Positions 14,388 to 21,308 of a stretch of 64,000 nucleotides of DNA are shown in pieces; within the stretch, counting starts at the first letter, position 1; each line of letters opens with the position of its first letter. The position numbers were made by a program, and so were the translations under genes. The stretch spans positions 32,001-96,000 of the forward strand of contig JBEKVV010000003.1 of the NCBI GenBank assembly GCA_049513715.1. The letters are read 5' to 3'. Under the pieces are notes generated by a model, which was not told the origin of the DNA, ran no database searches, and worked only from the letters and a program-made list of their open reading frames with translations. This stretch comes from Candidatus Bathyarchaeia archaeon (GTDB lineage: Archaea > Thermoproteota > Bathyarchaeia > 40CM-2-53-6).

Positions 14388-17270
14388 CTATTCGACGAAT
14401 ATTGCGGCTCGGTACGGCTCAGCCATCTTCGCTCTACCTTTCGGATCGTACAGCGCAGCATCCTCCTCTCCATGCGCTTCAACTCCGATTTTCAGCTCCC
14501 TCTCGAAGAAAACTTGAGCTTCCCGCAGGGCTTTCGGCTCATCGAGCTCGCCGCCTTCCATCCTTCGCGCTCGCAAGTCTGCAGGCATAGTCCTAACTTG
14601 CTTGATGATTTTGGCGGCGAACTTCGGCAAGTCCTTTGGCGTAGGAGACTTTGCCGCGATCATCTCGCGAATCAGGCCATCCAATGTTTCAGGATGGGAC
14701 TGAGCACGTCTTAGGGCTTCAGTGTACACGCGCCACTTCCATTTCGCGGCTGTGTAGTAGTGAACCTTCTTTGGCGTAATCCTGGTTGTTGCGATGATTT
14801 CCTGAGTGTCCGCGAGCGTTGCCTCAACTAACTCCTCCAGCTGGTCAGGTTGGGGGTCGACTTTGGCTTCCTTAAAGCGAGGCCATTCAGCCTGAGCGAT
14901 GAACCCTTTTTCCCCTAACGCATGCCAAGCCTCTTCGGCGATGTGTGGTCCAAATGGTGTCAGAAGCCTAGTCCAAGCTGAGACAAACGCCTTGACTGTT
15001 GCGGAGTCGGGTTTTGTTACGCGCCGCTCATACCAACGTAAATCATTCCATAGATCATACAGTGCAACGGAGAGCGCTGTTCGGGTCTTCAGATGCTCCA
15101 TTGCTTCGGAGACGACTTTGGTTTTCGAGTTGATTCTGCCAACCAACCAGCTTTCCAAGTGGCCGTTCTTGGATTCACCCTCAGACGCTGCAGCATCCTG
15201 AACTAGGCGCAAGAACGCTTCTAGCCGGCCTTTGATGTCACGAACGTTCTCAGAGCGCCAATCAGGGTCATCCATACCCTCCGCGGCGAGTAGGCTTGTG
15301 CAGCGCACCGCATCCGCTCCACTGTCTTCGCAGGCTTTCCAGAGCGGGATGAAGTTGCCCAGCGACTTGTGAATCGCCCTGCCTTCCAGCAACATGAACC
15401 CGTTGACCCCGATGGCCTTCGGCCAAAACTTCCGCTCAAAGAGGGCCACATGGTGGAAAATGAAGAAAGTCAAATGATTTCCAACCAAGTCCTTGCCAGA
15501 GTTCCTTAGGTCAACTGGGTACCAGTAGAGGAACTCGTCCCGGATTTTCTTCAGAAGCCCCGTGCCAATCCCTGCTTGTTTCTCCAGTTGCCCGGGGTTC
15601 CCCGTTCCATAGAATATGAAATCGAAGATCTCGGGGATCAGTTGCTGCGCCTTGACTAGGCCTGCGTTGACGAACTTGCTGACCATGTAGTAGGCCATGT
15701 AGATCGTTGAATCGCTTAGAGTTTCCACGATCCAGTCAGGGCTCCATGGCAGCGGTGTGCCCAAGCCGGTCTTTCGGGCGCAAGGCCAGTCGTGCAACCA
15801 ATCGATTATTCCGTCAAACCAGCCCCTCGCTTCTTCAGGGTAGAAGGACATCTTCGAGACCGCATCATGAGCTCGCCCCTTCCACTCCGGGTCGGAGTAC
15901 TTCAGAAACCACTGGCCTTCCACAACCTTGGCAACACATTCGGTTGTGCAGCGGCAGACCACACGTTGTGGGAGTTCATACATGACGTCGGCTATGCCTT
16001 TCTTTCGATAATCGCTGACCAGGGATTGCTTAACGTCCGCAACTTTCTGCTTGGAGTAAGGTCCACAATTGTCTTTCAGAATTCCACCATGGAATTCTGC
16101 TCTGTAGATTTCTTTGGTGGCTTCGTCAGCTTTGGGATCATTCTGGTCCTTGATGTGCATGCGGTCAACAATCTCTAACGCAGGAAAGTCGCCGTAACCC
16201 TCCACTGAGATGACTGAGATGGGCTGAATTCCCGCCATGTCCTGTGGGCTAATGGAGAACTTCTCCAATGTTGACGGACTTCTCTGCACGTCCCTCAAAG
16301 CTAGCCAATCGAACGGCGCATGAGCTGGGACACTGTAAACCAACCCGGTTGCGTTCTCAGTGTTTACGAAGCTTCCGGGTAGGATTAGGAGTTGTCTGCT
16401 TTGGACGGCGTCGGTGCAGCGTTTGCCGATTAACTCAGCGCCCTTCAATTCCCGAACTACAGTGACTTGTTTCACTTGGTTCTGGAGCTTCGCGGACGCG
16501 GTCTTGCTGATGATCCACCGTTCATCGTTCACCTGCGCTTCCACATAATCGCCGTCCGGATTCACCCAGAGGTTCGTAACCCCGTAGATGGTCTCGGGCC
16601 TGAAGGTCGCGCATGGCAGGAACGTGTTGCCCATCTTGAACTTCATTAGGATGAATTCTTCAGGCCTAACACCTTCACCCTGCAACCTGTCCGCGTCACC
16701 TGTTGGGCTTTCGTCCTTTGGGCACCAGACGACTGGGTGTGTTCCTTTGATTACGTACCCTTTCTCCCGCAGCCTCAGGTACTGCCATGTGACGAACTGG
16801 TTGAACGCCGGGTTGAGTGAGCTCGTGTGGAATTCCCTGCGCCAATCAATCGACATTCCCAGCCGTTTGATGGCGTCTCGGTTGGCGTCTGTGTAGTACT
16901 TCGCCATGTAGACTGGGTCAACGAACTTCTTCAGGTCCTCCTCCGAAACTCCGTCCACTTCCCTGATGGGACGGATGAAGTCCTCGTCACCATTCTTGAT
17001 GCGTTCCGCCGCGCCCGCGACCGTTTTGCCCGTCCAATGCCAAGCCCACGGGTAGAGTACGTTGAATCCGCGCATCCGCATGTAACGCGCGTAGGCGTCG
17101 ATCCGTGCGGCTGTGAAACCGCTGCCAACATGCAGGGGGCCGCTCATGTACGCGAAAGGAAAAGTTACGAAGCATTTGGGCCGGGAGGGGTCGGGGTCGG
17201 ATTCGAATATCTTGGCTTTGGCCCATTCATTCTGCCATTTCTCATCGATCTGTTTCCAATCTAAGGGCAC
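14388..17270 (-). CDS. leuS: Leucyl-tRNA synthetase (archaeal type)
   Basis: FPFAYMSGPLHVG, TFRPET and SVPAHAPFD editing motifs, SDSTIY, SGKDL..NHL, C-terminal P.R.AI.VE. Confidence 0.95.
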   Translation of the reverse strand: MPLDWKQIDEKWQNEWAKAKIFESDPDPSRPKCFVTFPFAYMSGPLHVGSGFTAARIDAYARYMRMRGFNVLYPWAWHWTGKTVAGAAERIKNGDEDFIRPIREVDGVSEEDLKKFVDPVYMAKYYTDANRDAIKRLGMSIDWRREFHTSSLNPAFNQFVTWQYLRLREKGYVIKGTHPVVWCPKDESPTGDADRLQGEGVRPEEFILMKFKMGNTFLPCATFRPETIYGVTNLWVNPDGDYVEAQVNDERWIISKTASAKLQNQVKQVTVVRELKGAELIGKRCTDAVQSRQLLILPGSFVNTENATGLVYSVPAHAPFDWLALRDVQRSPSTLEKFSISPQDMAGIQPISVISVEGYGDFPALEIVDRMHIKDQNDPKADEATKEIYRAEFHGGILKDNCGPYSKQKVADVKQSLVSDYRKKGIADVMYELPQRVVCRCTTECVAKVVEGQWFLKYSDPEWKGRAHDAVSKMSFYPEEARGWFDGIIDWLHDWPCARKTGLGTPLPWSPDWIVETLSDSTIYMAYYMVSKFVNAGLVKAQQLIPEIFDFIFYGTGNPGQLEKQAGIGTGLLKKIRDEFLYWYPVDLRNSGKDLVGNHLTFFIFHHVALFERKFWPKAIGVNGFMLLEGRAIHKSLGNFIPLWKACEDSGADAVRCTSLLAAEGMDDPDWRSENVRDIKGRLEAFLRLVQDAAASEGESKNGHLESWLVGRINSKTKVVSEAMEHLKTRTALSVALYDLWNDLRWYERRVTKPDSATVKAFVSAWTRLLTPFGPHIAEEAWHALGEKGFIAQAEWPRFKEAKVDPQPDQLEELVEATLADTQEIIATTRITPKKVHYYTAAKWKWRVYTEALRRAQSHPETLDGLIREMIAAKSPTPKDLPKFAAKIIKQVRTMPADLRARRMEGGELDEPKALREAQVFFERELKIGVEAHGEEDAALYDPKGRAKMAEPYRAAIFVE

Positions 17271-17276
17271 GTGTGA

Positions 17277-20048
17277 TCACTTTGTTACCATCACTTTCAA
17301 CGCGGCTTCAGCGCTCTTCAACACTTCATCCGCGGCCTTCAGGTTCGTTCCTCCACCTTGGCCGAAGTATTCCTTGCCACCGCCACCGCCGCCCACAACC
17401 GCAGCCAACTTCGATGCTAGTTTCCCAGCATGTACTCCCTGCGCAATCGCATTCTTACCTGCACCCACGAAGACTCTGGCTGAGTTCTTCAACAGCAGCA
17501 GAACTGTGACAGCATTTGAATCCCTCTCGATGATTCTGTTGTTCAAGGAGACTAAGAGGAGCTCATCTTCTTCACCGCGAGTGTACTTCGCTTCGCATAA
17601 TCGCACTTTTCCGACCATCTTGGAAGAGCTAAGTAATCTTCCAGCTTCGTTCTCCGCCCACTCCGCGGCTAATCCCTCCACTCTCTTCGTTAACCTCGTC
17701 TTTTCTTCGACGAGTGATTGCACGTAGTTGCCCACTTTGTCAATTGGTGCTTCCACTGTTGTTGAGATTCCTTTGAGCGTCTTTTCCTGTTCTTGGAACG
17801 CTCGTAGAGCCTGCGTTCCCGCAGCGAATATGATTCGCTCTACGCCGTCTTGAATGCGCTCGGTGTGGAGAATTTTGATTGTGCCAATCTGACCAGTCCG
17901 GGTGCAATGGGTTCCCCCGCAGGCCTCCACATCCCAGTCTCCAATCTTGATGATCCTTAGCTCCCTGCCGGGAACAACGCCCCCTTGGTACAACTTGTAG
18001 CCATACGCTTGCTCCGCTTTCTCCCTGGGCAGCCATTGCGATTCCACGGGTATATCTTGCAATGCGACTTCTGTTGCTAATCGCTCAATCTGCCTGACTT
18101 GATCGTCTGTGAGTCGTTCGTAGTGGGATATGTCGATTCGGCTCGACTCGACTCCCTTCTGCGCTCCTGCCTGCCAAGCATGCTGGCCTAGGACTCGGCG
18201 TGCCGCACCTAGAACCAAGTGTGTTCCAGTGTGGTGGCGCATCAGGCTCACACGCCTATCCCACTCAATAGAACCGCGGACAGTATCCCCCACGTTGGGC
18301 GCCCTTCCATCCAACTGATGAACCACAACGCGGCCCGCCTTTTGTGTGTCAACAACTTTGACGGGGCCGTTGCTGGTCTCTATGGTTCCGATGTCGCCTG
18401 GTTGGCCTCCTCCCTCGGGATAGAAACACGTTTGATCCAGAACCACGAACTTGCCATCGATGACAGCCAGCACTTTTCCATGAAACTCCTTCTGGAACGG
18501 GTCCTTGTAGTACAACGGCACTGTGTCCGGTAGCCCGGCCACTTTGTCTCTCAGCTTCTGTGAGGTTTCGGTTTCCACTTCTTCGTCGGAGGCACGTTTT
18601 CCGGACAGGTGCTTCTGCGCGACCATCCCGTAGAAGTTTCCAGGCGGGTTCGCTGTGACGCCGAGCGGTTCAGCGATTTCATTCACTATATCGGGAACCA
18701 TGCCCTGCGAATCATACAGCTCTACCAGAGTCTCCGATGGAACCTCTCTCAATCCCTTAGTTTTCAGGTCGGTGGCTATCTTCTTGACTAACTCTGATCC
18801 ACGTTCCAAGGTCCTTCGGTACTTGGACTCCTCGGACTTCAACTCCTCAGCAATCTCACTTCGCATCGCCTTCAGTTGCGGGAAGTCGTCGCCCCAGTAA
18901 TCGACCTGGGAATCCAAGACCTCGAGCATCTTGTCTTCAATTCCCAGTTGCCGCAACATTCTGTACGTTCGTCGGATTAGTAGGCGCGCTAGGTATCCTT
19001 CTTCGACGTTGGATGGAACAATACCTTCGGATAACAGAAACGCTATGACTTTGGTGTGGTCGGCGACTGCCATCGCGTTTTCAATCGGCACCATGGCTTT
19101 TTCGAGGTCTCGCCAATCCATCCCGACTCTTTCAGCAACCTTCTTCCTTGCGTCAATTCTGTCACCGCCGCGCTCTAGGTTCATGAAGCTTGAGTAAGGA
19201 ACCACTTTCGCCACGAGTTTCTCATCGTACTTGACTGAGGAGAGCTTGAAGATATTGTCCAACACTGGCCCATAGATGACTTGGAACGCGCTGGGTTTAC
19301 CTTGGCTCAGCCACGCCCACCGCTCAATCCCATAACCGGTATCAACGGTCCGGATTGGCAGCTTGACCAGTCGGTCGCCGTCCACCTTGTACTGCATGAA
19401 GACTAAGGTCGAGATCTCTAGGCCGGCGGATAGGCACTCGAGGTCTGGGCCTGCGTTTCCTCCACCTGACCAGAAGTGCTCTTTGTAGGACATGCTCTCA
19501 GACCTCAGTCCGAACTCTTCCGTCGCAAGTTGGTGATGGTAGCGAATCGTTTGGTCCATCCAGTAGATTTCCTTGTCAGGATAGTTGAAAGCGTGGGCGC
19601 CACCCATTTCGAACATTAGGTCATGCCGTCCCAATGTTGGACCCACGTTGTCGATGTCCGTGAACCTTATCGATGGTTGACTGACGACAAGTGGATTGGC
19701 GGGTGGAGGAACCGAGCCCTCGGTAACCCATGGTTGGAAATCGTAAATCGACGCCCCAACTAAGAAAACGTCGTCTCGCCAACGCGCAACGACAGGGTAT
19801 GGATTGATCCTCTGATGGCCATTTCGCTCAAAGAATGAAAGGAATAGTTCCCGCATCTCCCGGACGGAGTAAGGCCGTCGAGCTGGAGGTTTGCCTATAA
19901 ATGAATACTCAACGCAGGGGCTGTCCCCACAGTACCTTTCGTCGGGCTGTTGTGACCAGAAGTATGCTTTGCAGCATTCACACTGCCTCCTAGTGAACCC
20001 GTTCTCTTTGAAGAACGGGACCGCGAATTCCTTCTCATCAATTTCCAT
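17277..20048 (-). CDS. alaS: Alanyl-tRNA synthetase (full-length archaeal type)
   Basis: YPVVARWRDD, ASIYDFQP, DTGYGIER, HTGTH and ACGGTH editing motifs, GGGGG C-Ala domain. Confidence 0.97.
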   Translation of the reverse strand: MEIDEKEFAVPFFKENGFTRRQCECCKAYFWSQQPDERYCGDSPCVEYSFIGKPPARRPYSVREMRELFLSFFERNGHQRINPYPVVARWRDDVFLVGASIYDFQPWVTEGSVPPPANPLVVSQPSIRFTDIDNVGPTLGRHDLMFEMGGAHAFNYPDKEIYWMDQTIRYHHQLATEEFGLRSESMSYKEHFWSGGGNAGPDLECLSAGLEISTLVFMQYKVDGDRLVKLPIRTVDTGYGIERWAWLSQGKPSAFQVIYGPVLDNIFKLSSVKYDEKLVAKVVPYSSFMNLERGGDRIDARKKVAERVGMDWRDLEKAMVPIENAMAVADHTKVIAFLLSEGIVPSNVEEGYLARLLIRRTYRMLRQLGIEDKMLEVLDSQVDYWGDDFPQLKAMRSEIAEELKSEESKYRRTLERGSELVKKIATDLKTKGLREVPSETLVELYDSQGMVPDIVNEIAEPLGVTANPPGNFYGMVAQKHLSGKRASDEEVETETSQKLRDKVAGLPDTVPLYYKDPFQKEFHGKVLAVIDGKFVVLDQTCFYPEGGGQPGDIGTIETSNGPVKVVDTQKAGRVVVHQLDGRAPNVGDTVRGSIEWDRRVSLMRHHTGTHLVLGAARRVLGQHAWQAGAQKGVESSRIDISHYERLTDDQVRQIERLATEVALQDIPVESQWLPREKAEQAYGYKLYQGGVVPGRELRIIKIGDWDVEACGGTHCTRTGQIGTIKILHTERIQDGVERIIFAAGTQALRAFQEQEKTLKGISTTVEAPIDKVGNYVQSLVEEKTRLTKRVEGLAAEWAENEAGRLLSSSKMVGKVRLCEAKYTRGEEDELLLVSLNNRIIERDSNAVTVLLLLKNSARVFVGAGKNAIAQGVHAGKLASKLAAVVGGGGGGKEYFGQGGGTNLKAADEVLKSAEAALKVMVTK

Positions 20049-20135
20049 TAGCTCTTGTTCCTCCAGCCGACAGAGCAGAACGAAGCAGACTAACTAGAAA
20101 GCTATTTGCCCGCTCCCTCTGTCAGCGAGGTGCGA
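20049..20135 (-). promoter_or_regulatory. Candidate translational attenuator of alaS-leuS (alternative hairpins over the GGAGG Shine-Dalgarno)
   Basis: mRNA segment GCUGACAGAG (20117-20126) pairs 10 bp with CUCUGUCGGC (20066-20075); the overlapping GUUC-UG-CUCU can instead pair with GGAG-GAAC containing the SD (20060-20064). Confidence 0.6.
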
Positions 20136-20169
20136 GCGCAAGGGCCTGAAGCAGAAGCAGATTCAACAT
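20122..20169 (-). CDS. Leu/Ala-rich leader peptide MLNLLLLQALALAPR
   Basis: 7 Leu and 3 Ala among 14 non-start codons; stop lies 73 nt upstream of the alaS ATG. Confidence 0.65.
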   Translation of the reverse strand: MLNLLLLQALALAPR

Positions 20170-20357
20170 ACCCGGCCCAACTCATCAGCATAGAATCGGC
20201 GTTTCAGCCAAATATACGTTATTGTGGAGCTGGATGCAGCAATGCCTCTGAAAGGCGATTCTGCCCATAATTTATCCACACTTCTATTCCCTTCGGCCTG
20301 CATTCGGGCCTATGCAGCCTTAATTCCTACTCTGCGATTCCTCTACTAGATGTCCCA

Positions 20358-21308
20358 ATGATCCACAAAGACGTGGTGACTGTCGTAGAGGACGTACGAA
20401 TCAGACAGATGAGAGGCGGAACCGTTGTCACACACGAGGCCCTTACCGCCCTTCGAACCGCAGCACTAGCCTCGACCTCAAAATCGCCCGAAGAGTTCAC
20501 CGCCGAGCTAGAGGAGAATGCAAAGTACCTCACCAATATTCGCGCCGCCTCAATCCCCCTAACCAACGGGCTGCGTTATGTGGTTAGTGAAGTTCAACAA
20601 GCCAAAAGCCGCGGGGCAACTATTCAAGAATTGAAGGAGGTCGTTTCCAACTCTTCGATGCGGTTTGATCGAAAGCTGGAGGAGTCACTTCAGCAGATTT
20701 CGGAAATCGGAGCACGCAGGCTGAAGGATGGAGACGTCATAATGACGCATAGCTACAGTAGCTCGGTCATCGCGATCCTGAAGAAAGCGCATCAGCAGGG
20801 CAAGCGGTTCAAAGTGTTCGTCACGGAAACTAGGCCTGAGCTTGAAGGGCAAGACGTGGCTCGTGAACTCGCCGCCGAAGGGATCGATACGACCCTGATT
20901 ATTGATTCTGCGGTCTCGCACTTCATTGAAGACGCAGACAAGGTGATTGTGGGGGCGGAGGCTGTTGCAGCAAACGGGGCGATTGTAAACAAGATTGGCA
21001 CGGCGACCATCGCAGCAGTAGCGCACGGCGCCCGTGTGAGAGTGTTCGTTGCCGCTAGCACTTACAAATTCAGCCCGGAAACGATGTTCGGAGAACTTAT
21101 CACCATAGAAGAAAGGTCACCGTCATTCGTGTCAGACCAACTCGAAAAGAAGAAGCTGCCGAACTTGAGGATCAGGAATCCGGCCTTTGACGTAACTTCT
21201 CCACAAGACATTGACCTAATCATCACAGAACGCGGAGTCATCCCACCCCAAGCCGCAATAATGATCCTCCGCGAACAAAAGGGCCCACTGATCTTCGCGC
21301 CCCAATGA
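20358..21308 (+). CDS. eIF-2B/ribose-1,5-bisphosphate isomerase family protein
   Basis: MRGG, MTHSYSSSV, VTETRP, VGAEAV..NG..VNKIGT, NPAFDVT, ITERG. Confidence 0.9.
   Translation: MIHKDVVTVVEDVRIRQMRGGTVVTHEALTALRTAALASTSKSPEEFTAELEENAKYLTNIRAASIPLTNGLRYVVSEVQQAKSRGATIQELKEVVSNSSMRFDRKLEESLQQISEIGARRLKDGDVIMTHSYSSSVIAILKKAHQQGKRFKVFVTETRPELEGQDVARELAAEGIDTTLIIDSAVSHFIEDADKVIVGAEAVAANGAIVNKIGTATIAAVAHGARVRVFVAASTYKFSPETMFGELITIEERSPSFVSDQLEKKKLPNLRIRNPAFDVTSPQDIDLIITERGVIPPQAAIMILREQKGPLIFAPQ

Follow-up and report, generated by a model that had tools for sequence, protein, structure and literature searches.

The window analysed here is a stretch of 64,000 nucleotides (nt) from contig JBEKVV010000003.1 of a Candidatus Bathyarchaeia archaeon, an uncultured organism of peat or soil. 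On its minus strand lie alaS and leuS, the genes for alanine-tRNA and leucine-tRNA ligase, and this study concerns the leader of about 140 nt in front of alaS. The two genes have the same orientation and are separated by 6 nt, as an initial annotation of this DNA had stated; NCBIfam confirmed both. The nearest gene on the other side of the leader encodes a ribose-1,5-bisphosphate isomerase (20358-21308, plus strand). It is divergent from alaS, and the intergenic region measures 309 nt. The leader contains a short upstream open reading frame (uORF) rich in Leu and Ala codons, and its RNA is predicted to fold into two hairpins, P1 and P2. P2 would cover the Shine-Dalgarno (SD) sequence of alaS. 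The leader might thus be an attenuator in which a ribosome on the uORF controls the translation of both synthetase genes. The features are listed in Table 1.

A covariance model of the leader, R1, was used for genome scans. It matched once in the genome of the window, before alaS, and it matched in 13 of the 22 other genomes of the genus. No match was obtained in 36 genomes of four other genera of the family, scanned with the stricter filters of Infernal. One metagenome scan gave 63 loci, which were pooled with the genome loci into 58 distinct sequences. The AlaS N-terminus follows in 52 of the 58, starting 50-79 nt past the start of the search-pattern match. Of the remaining six, four are contigs that end too early to tell, and two (L184 and L188) diverge after the start codon. 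In these two metagenome contigs, a sequence with early stops stands behind the leader and start codon in the place of alaS, which may reflect a chimeric assembly, a rearrangement or a pseudogene. In a scan of genome contigs with a loose pattern, the Candidatus Bathyarchaeota metagenome-assembled genome L031 was, among the matches listed, the only one with the element, and the rest were chance matches in bacteria. The 47 full-length leaders were aligned (alignments A2 and A3), and most per-leader counts below refer to them.

Table 1. Features of the alaS-leuS locus and its leader, with positions in the window. MFE, minimum free energy; BRE, B recognition element.
Feature	Positions	Strand	Basis or remark
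BRE/TATA-like block AACGTATATTTGG (consensus of relatives GAATAAnCTATAT)	20208..20220	-	shared by 47 leaders, some 32 columns before GAGUUGGGCC
P1 5' arm, UGAGU-U-GGGCC	20174..20184	-	5' end of the transcript (inferred); pairs with 20146-20133 in MFE folds
uORF MLNLLLLQALALAPR, 15 codons and TGA	20122..20169 (ATG 20169, TGA 20124-20122)	-	direct reading
Four-Leu run, codons 4-7 (CTG CTT CTG CTT), in P1 loop	20149..20160	-	unpaired in consensus
P1 3' arm, GGCCC-UUGC-GCUCG	20133..20146	-	overlaps codons Ala9-Leu12; MFE folds
Ala9-Leu10-Ala11-Leu12-Ala13 (GCC CTT GCG CTC GCA)	20131..20145	-	codons 10-13 proposed for sensing, next to the anti-SD on its 5' side
Anti-SD, CCUC	20127..20130	-	pairs with GAGG 20063-20060 in MFE folds; CACCUC matches 16S tail ...GAUCACCUCCU
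Segment 2, GCUGACAGAG	20117..20126	-	5' arm of the covarying helix, holds the short-form uORF stop; covariation count
P2 upper 5' strand, GGAGCGG, then GCA	20107..20116	-	MFE folds
P2 apical part, GCAAAUA..U..CUA....AG	20085..20109	-	most conserved stretch, only invariant run; invariant columns
P2 upper 3' strand, UGC, bulged U, UCGUUCU	20077..20087	-	MFE folds, model-fitted alignment
Segment 3, CUCUGUCGGC	20066..20075	-	3' arm of the covarying helix; covariation count
alaS SD, GGAGG	20060..20064	-	11 nt before ATG; complementary to 16S tail CCUCC; position conserved
alaS (alanine-tRNA ligase, 923 amino acids)	17277..20048	-	NCBIfam TIGR03683, archaeal, 1097.9 bits
leuS (leucine-tRNA ligase, 960 amino acids)	14388..17270	-	NCBIfam NF008957, 1142.3 bits

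Direct reading of the uORF gave 7 Leu and 3 Ala among its 15 codons, exactly as first annotated, and the alignment of relatives showed that it is kept. An in-frame NTG stands at one aligned column in 46 of the 47 leaders. The sole exception, L018, has an extra C. The codon in this column is ATG in 39 leaders, TTG in 5 and GTG in 3, and its TG is invariant. Codons 2-4 vary freely, whereas codons 5-13 keep the sequence LLLQALALA through synonymous changes. At codon 6, Leu occurs in 41 leaders and is written with all six Leu codons (CTG 26, TTG 9, CTC 3, TTA 1, CTT 1, CTA 1); at codon 7 it occurs in 43. Ala9 and Leu10 are present in all 47 leaders (Leu10 as CTT in 36 and CTC in 11), Ala11 in 37 and Leu12 in 42. 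The Ala13 column reads GCN in 30 rows, GC- with an indel in 14 and ACA in 1, and 2 rows have gaps. The indels read by eye in three alignment rows (+6 nt twice, -3 nt once) are all in frame. The mean entropy by codon position was 0.40, 0.34 and 0.59, which is a modest signal. Since the run of Leu codons 4-7 is unpaired in the consensus, its constraint appears to lie in coding. Judged from these patterns, the conserved Leu/Ala-rich leader ORF before alaS-leuS is very probably translated. An overlapping uORF in another frame (ATG 20191 or 20185), which had been put forward as a complication, is present in the window, but its start occurs in only 19 of the 47 leaders and is not conserved.

The uORF has two forms, which together range from 15 to 22 codons. 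The short form ends in ...APR, with its UGA inside segment 2, and the long form ends in ...ALAGRGRGK, with its UAA or UAG inside the invariant GGCAAAUAG. The stretch CCUCGCUG is identical in both forms despite the different frame (GCA CCU CGC versus GCC CUC GCU). As a change of frame leaves its bases untouched, the constraint on this stretch is at the RNA level.

MFE folds of all 47 leaders and of the leader in the window contained the two hairpins. The loop of P1 holds the uORF start and the Leu run. P2 has about 30 base pairs and consists of CCUC:GAGG, a UG bulge, the helix GCUGACAGAG:CUCUGUCGGC (helix 2:3), GGAGCGG:UCGUUCU and GCA:UGC, with a small apical hairpin on top. The MFE of the leader in the window was -56.5 kcal/mol (z = -2.2), and 3 of 200 shuffles were as stable, so the single-sequence signal is modest. 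Taken separately in the window, P1 has -15.2 kcal/mol and P2 -37.1 kcal/mol (-32.1 without CCUC:GAGG).

Helix 2:3 covaries. Its cells were paired in 95.4% of cases, and 4 of its 10 pairs had both-sided changes (10 cells). The paired fraction, the compensatory-cell count and the covariation score were reached by 0 of 500 shuffles, two count measures were reached by 20 and 18 of 500, and slid controls were 25-52% paired. The upper part of P2 changes its pairing register by subgroup, and its pair counts came to only 87% with no compensatory change in the model-fitted alignment. In the unfitted alignment, GGGCC/GGCCC of P1 was 97% paired without covariation. In the model-fitted one, helices 1 and 2 of P1 were 85% and 95% paired, with both-sided changes in 9 of 10 pairs. 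For P1 and P2 together, the model-fitted alignment of 56 leaders was 90.2% paired, and 19 of 32 pairs had both-sided changes (0 of 500 shuffles; slid controls 36-51%); this alignment leans towards the model, and the few both-sided changes in CCUC:GAGG and P1 come from there. RNAalifold gave only -7.5 kcal/mol on the MAFFT alignment, because indels break the middle of P2.

The conservation of the LLLQALALA core at the amino-acid level could also mean that the uORF product, a small hydrophobic peptide, is functional in itself, the RNA structure being incidental. We find this scarcely credible. At 15-22 residues, the peptide would vary freely at its N-terminus and end in one of two unrelated ways (APR or LAGRGRGK). 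It is found once per genome and never apart from the alaS leader, and the covarying helix overlaps the end of the uORF.

The 16S ribosomal RNA (rRNA) of this genome ends in GGAUCACCUCCU, and for that reason GGAGG before alaS is a true SD, and CACCUC in the uORF is a copy of the rRNA tail. At least three SD bases were paired with uORF bases in 42 of the 47 MFE folds. CCUC:GAGG buries four of the five SD bases and contributes -5.0 kcal/mol to P2 of the window. Because helix 2:3 runs outward over the 2-nt bulge into CCUC:GAGG in these 42 folds, the intact helix is predicted to go with a hidden SD, that is, with the OFF state. To model translation of the leader, the ribosome was represented as a 27-nt mask. 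The mean ensemble cost of opening the SD in the naked leader was 4.75 kcal/mol (47 leaders). With the mask it was 1.5 kcal/mol (median 1.07) when the A site was on Ala11, 2.1 on Leu12 and 2.7 on Ala13. The cost was 3.3-5.7 kcal/mol on earlier codons and went back to 3-4 further on.

The initial annotation had wired the switch the other way. It held that helix 2:3 leaves the SD free (ON), and that a ribosome at the uORF stop melts 2:3, so that segment 3 pairs with segment 4 and hides the SD (OFF). The helix itself, 10 base pairs with the extension GGAGCGG/UCGUUCU, was found as described, and its core covaries. The 3:4 pairing also forms in the window (-9.7 kcal/mol), and opening the SD still takes 2.9-3.3 kcal/mol on average when the ribosome mask sits on the last codons, as such a scheme would expect. 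However, 3:4 leans on the window-specific ACAAGAGC and is weak in relatives, where it was 79% paired against 51-60% in slid controls, in gappy columns and with a spacer that differs among them. The accompanying 1:2 hairpin exists when taken alone (-17.8 kcal/mol, 92% pairing potential) but does not covary. In the window, P1 and P2 (-52 kcal/mol) far outweigh 1:2 and 3:4 (about -27 kcal/mol), and the continuation of 2:3 into CCUC:GAGG contradicts an ON state. We regard the wiring with 2:3 as ON as very improbable. The general idea of a cognate-rich leader peptide coupled to an RNA structure at the SD is partly supported, with the wiring reversed.

The position of the BRE/TATA-like block and the usual archaeal distance from TATA to the transcription start would place that start near 20187 ± 4, at the foot of P1 and ahead of the uORF. 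In one peat metatranscriptome, the only one found among public RNA runs and with a small share, alaS and the leader are joined on contigs of three relatives (less than 90% identical). One RNA contig extends from 19969 to 20157 and has 15 more letters that match the uORF start of a relative; two other contigs have 12 and 102 further leader-like letters. Transcription attenuation was rejected, as no terminator-like site was found in 19900-20400, and the leader has no run of five or more T. A scan of Rfam with E values up to 10 returned only snR40 (E = 6.6) and MS2 (E = 9.7) and no T-box match. With no terminator and no Rfam or T-box family, a translational mechanism is left. Coupling by termination and reinitiation is described for overlapping gene pairs in the relevant passages of PMC7531240. 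In this leader some 74 nt (short form) or 54 nt (long form) separate the uORF stop from the alaS ATG, a distance that seems too great, and this candidate was rejected. A C/D-box small RNA, suggested by eye from TGATGA (20187-20182) and CTGA (20125-20122), was also discarded, as TGATGA is not conserved in relatives.

We tentatively favour, at a little less than an even chance, a ribosome-read translational attenuator of the alaS-leuS operon that is driven by hungry codons. The transcript would start a few bases before UGAGUUGGGCC and fold into P1 and P2, with P1 enclosing the start and the Leu run of the leader ORF. In the naked RNA, P2 is predicted to hide the alaS SD, which would keep expression low or OFF. 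To translate the leader, a ribosome would have to unwind the 5' strand of P2. When its front edge lies over CCUC, the SD would become free and a second ribosome could start alaS; leuS would probably be coupled. Leu10-Ala11-Leu12-Ala13 would be the codons whose A-site occupancy first puts the front edge onto CCUC. When charged transfer RNA (tRNA) for Leu or Ala is scarce, slow decoding at codons 10-13 would lengthen the exposure of the SD, and more alanyl- and leucyl-tRNA synthetase (AlaRS and LeuRS) would be made. The raised synthesis of AlaRS and LeuRS would close a negative feedback loop. The more specific claim, a two-amino-acid archaeal leader-peptide attenuator in which alternating Leu and Ala codons before the anti-SD let ribosome dwell time set the translation of two synthetases, is one that we would sooner doubt than assert, although it may be correct.

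Several observations, set out in this and the next paragraphs, weigh against an attenuator driven by hungry codons. With the A site on codons 4-7 of the Leu run, the SD costs 3.3-4.5 kcal/mol, and the ribosome is too far from CCUC to open it. Stalling at these codons would not disturb P2, the opposite of what Leu starvation calls for. The run is clearly selected as Leu, to judge from its codons, yet the favoured model leaves it unexplained. The uORF has no SD of its own; by a crude count, an SD-like motif precedes 6 of the 28 long ORFs of the window. In the unfitted alignment, CCUC:GAGG was 94% paired without covariation, and P1, together with the 1:2 hairpin, was 92% paired without covariation. 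The metatranscriptome contigs show neither 5' ends nor strand, and carry-over of DNA is possible. In 12 leaders the cost of opening the SD was 2.6-8.2 kcal/mol, and when the upstream sequence was shuffled by dinucleotides, 263 of 720 shuffles cost at least as much. Composition alone lets a pyrimidine-rich leader cover a purine SD to this degree, and the specific part of the occlusion is the identity of the partner and its position adjoining the covarying helix. GCN and CUN codons are also expected from the GC-rich arms GGCCC and GCUCG, so the Leu/Ala composition may be a by-product.

Variant leaders point in the same direction. The 5' half is diverged in L009, L151, L173 and L201. The last three have a 31-codon uORF, MAAYSCRIFHGEAAV...EREAGK, which lacks the richness in Leu and has the same conserved UAG as its stop. 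The MAAYSCRIFHGEAAV uORF lies about 90 nt before the conserved GCAAATAG, and its frame is interrupted in L009. In the MFE folds of these leaders, the SD region pairs with early codons of the 31-codon uORF. Other leaders (L010, L207, L164, L015 and L172) have lost the 5' half and kept the upper hairpin and loop. At these loci a co-directional upstream gene ends 10-48 nt before the retained hairpin and may stand in for the uORF. An internal promoter at GCAAATAGCT could explain why the 3' half is retained. It is a less probable candidate, as GCAAATAGCT does not resemble the TATA block farther upstream and what is retained can still fold into the upper hairpin. Because the variant uORFs are not Leu-rich or the 5' half is lost, amino-acid sensing does not appear to be universal in the leader family. 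As to the upstream genes themselves, L010, L207 and L172 have a small co-directional ORF with a zinc-ribbon-like pattern, CxCG...WCGKQG, that ends 40-48 nt before the hairpin, and L164 has a membrane-protein-like ORF that ends 10 nt before it.

These observations would also fit a leader that senses no amino acid. In that case P2 would lower or stabilise alaS expression and be opened by the uORF at a fixed rate, or the hairpins would protect the 5' end of the mRNA, and Leu and Ala would be by-products of GC- or pyrimidine-rich arms. Such constitutive unmasking or a structural leader agrees with an SD occlusion no stronger than in shuffles, with the fall of some Ala and Leu codons in the 3' arm of P1, and with variants that end at the same UAG without being Leu-rich or that keep the upper hairpin only. 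It does not account for six different Leu codons at the unpaired codon 6, or for Leu10 in 47 of 47 leaders with synonymous change, both of which argue for selection on Leu itself. Further, Leu and Ala, in which the uORF is enriched, are exactly what the enzymes encoded downstream use as substrates. Three synthetase leaders were compared in the genome of the window, and a cognate-rich uORF was present before alaS only; the regions upstream of the valS-like (L228) and ileS-like (L229) genes, on contig C1, had no Val- or Ile-rich short uORF. On balance, we think a leader without sensing unlikely.

The apical part of P2 adds a further difficulty for the hungry-codon attenuator. CUA with a purine directly after it is invariant in its loop, and UAG at 20104-20102 is the stop of the long-form uORF in relatives (UAG or UAA). 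The conserved apical letters are explained neither by pairing nor by short-form coding, and they are kept even in leaders without the 5' half. The stretch may be a binding site. An operator for a trans-acting factor would explain these features: the loop would bind a tRNA or a protein, which would stabilise P2 and repress translation. The protein could be AlaRS or LeuRS, acting on its own mRNA as E. coli ThrRS does on thrS mRNA. In favour of an operator, the apical part is the most conserved of the leader, and it alone survives where the uORF is missing. Nevertheless, the Rfam scan gave no known family, and no UGGN partner fits a tRNA end with the discriminator base that we take to be A73. The GCU beside the loop is ACU or GUU in many relatives, and the U.G pair in 1:2, which is U-A in many relatives, is oriented the wrong way round to mimic G3:U70. 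We consider an operator quite unlikely as the explanation of the leader, and it may coexist with the uORF attenuator. A mimic of the tRNA-Ala acceptor was rejected, as GGGCC/GGCCC has no G:U pair and the U.G of 1:2 is misoriented and not conserved. A T-box-like reading of the loop was not supported either, since GCU varies among relatives and UGGU is absent.

The attenuator favoured here can be compared with several bacterial systems. The classical leader-peptide transcription attenuator of a synthetase operon is E. coli pheM-pheST. Attenuators of leuS and trpS have been predicted in Streptomyces, according to the part of PMC1262725 that treats them. Our leader shares with this type a short, cognate-rich leader ORF before a synthetase gene and the selection of an RNA fold by ribosome position. 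Those systems use a terminator hairpin and a U-tract, whereas none was found here and access to the SD is proposed. Here, in addition, two amino acids match two synthetases.

Another likeness is the predicted actinobacterial LEU element before leuA (Seliverstov et al. 2005, PMC1262725), whose mechanism its authors left open. As described there, it also has a uORF with Leu codons, a basal stem between leader codons and the downstream SD, and no terminator. In our leader the Leu codon CUC of the long-form uORF is part of the anti-SD. The LEU element differs in being bacterial, in preceding a biosynthetic gene, in pairing a run of Leu codons with the SD and in having a pseudoknot. By comparison of the descriptions, the anti-SD CCUC stands here after the Leu/Ala block, on Pro-Arg codons in the short form, and the hairpin is plain and long. 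The same parts of that article report T-box leaders, including ileS T-boxes of Actinobacteria that sequester the SD. T-boxes likewise control synthetases by tRNA charging, some of them via the SD. They bind tRNA directly, whereas no T-box match was found here and sensing via the ribosome is proposed.

Leader-peptide stalling is known from secM. In ermC/ermCL, cat, secM-secA and mifM-yidC2, the downstream SD lies in a hairpin whose 5' strand is in or after the leader ORF, and a paused ribosome opens it, as is proposed here. In that group the pause comes from an antibiotic or a nascent-chain arrest motif, whereas hungry Leu and Ala codons would cause it here. The uORF showed no conserved arrest motif, and the C-termini differ between its forms. 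A leader ORF has also been described for a Mg2+ transporter of Salmonella.

Leader-peptide attenuation is not known from archaea, and how they match synthetases to tRNA charging is largely open. A full-text search of the literature found no paper on leader-peptide attenuation or a regulatory uORF before an archaeal synthetase gene. The available sections of a review of archaeal translation initiation do not mention attenuation or leader peptides, and uORFs appear there only in a eukaryotic reference. The nearest descriptions, namely the LEU element, the Streptomyces leuS and trpS attenuators and the ileS T-boxes in the cited portions of PMC1262725, are all bacterial. If the proposed reading is true, hungry-codon attenuation would operate at the level of translation in a domain for which we found no published leader-peptide control. 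Hungry codons could then be sensed purely via access to the SD, without transcription termination, and one leader would integrate two amino acids for a two-enzyme operon. With its conserved mini-gene, its covarying hairpin and its SD/anti-SD pair, the leader is a concrete case that can be mutated. Because the SD and the 16S tail are of bacterial type, it may be readable as it stands in E. coli or PURE systems.

The operon is more widely distributed than the leader. An alaS match was found in 37 of 41 related genomes. In 34 of these 37, leuS lies on the same contig about 2.77 kb downstream of alaS, and in the remaining 3 the genes are split across contigs. The alaS-leuS operon is thus found across the order. 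In other families of the order (loci L020-L030), a gene of the stalk-protein type stands directly before alaS-leuS in 10 of 11 loci, the exception being L027. From its tail, this gene presumably encodes the acidic ribosomal stalk protein. The intergenic region before alaS is short there and unrelated to the leader. As these families have alaS-leuS with another upstream gene, the operon must be older than the leader. At the other end of the gene, the 3' end of alaS reads GTGATCAC (17271-17290, minus strand), just 5' of the GTG start of leuS, and is complementary to GAUCAC of the 16S tail. This complementarity suggests that leuS probably has an SD of its own inside alaS, together with translational coupling.

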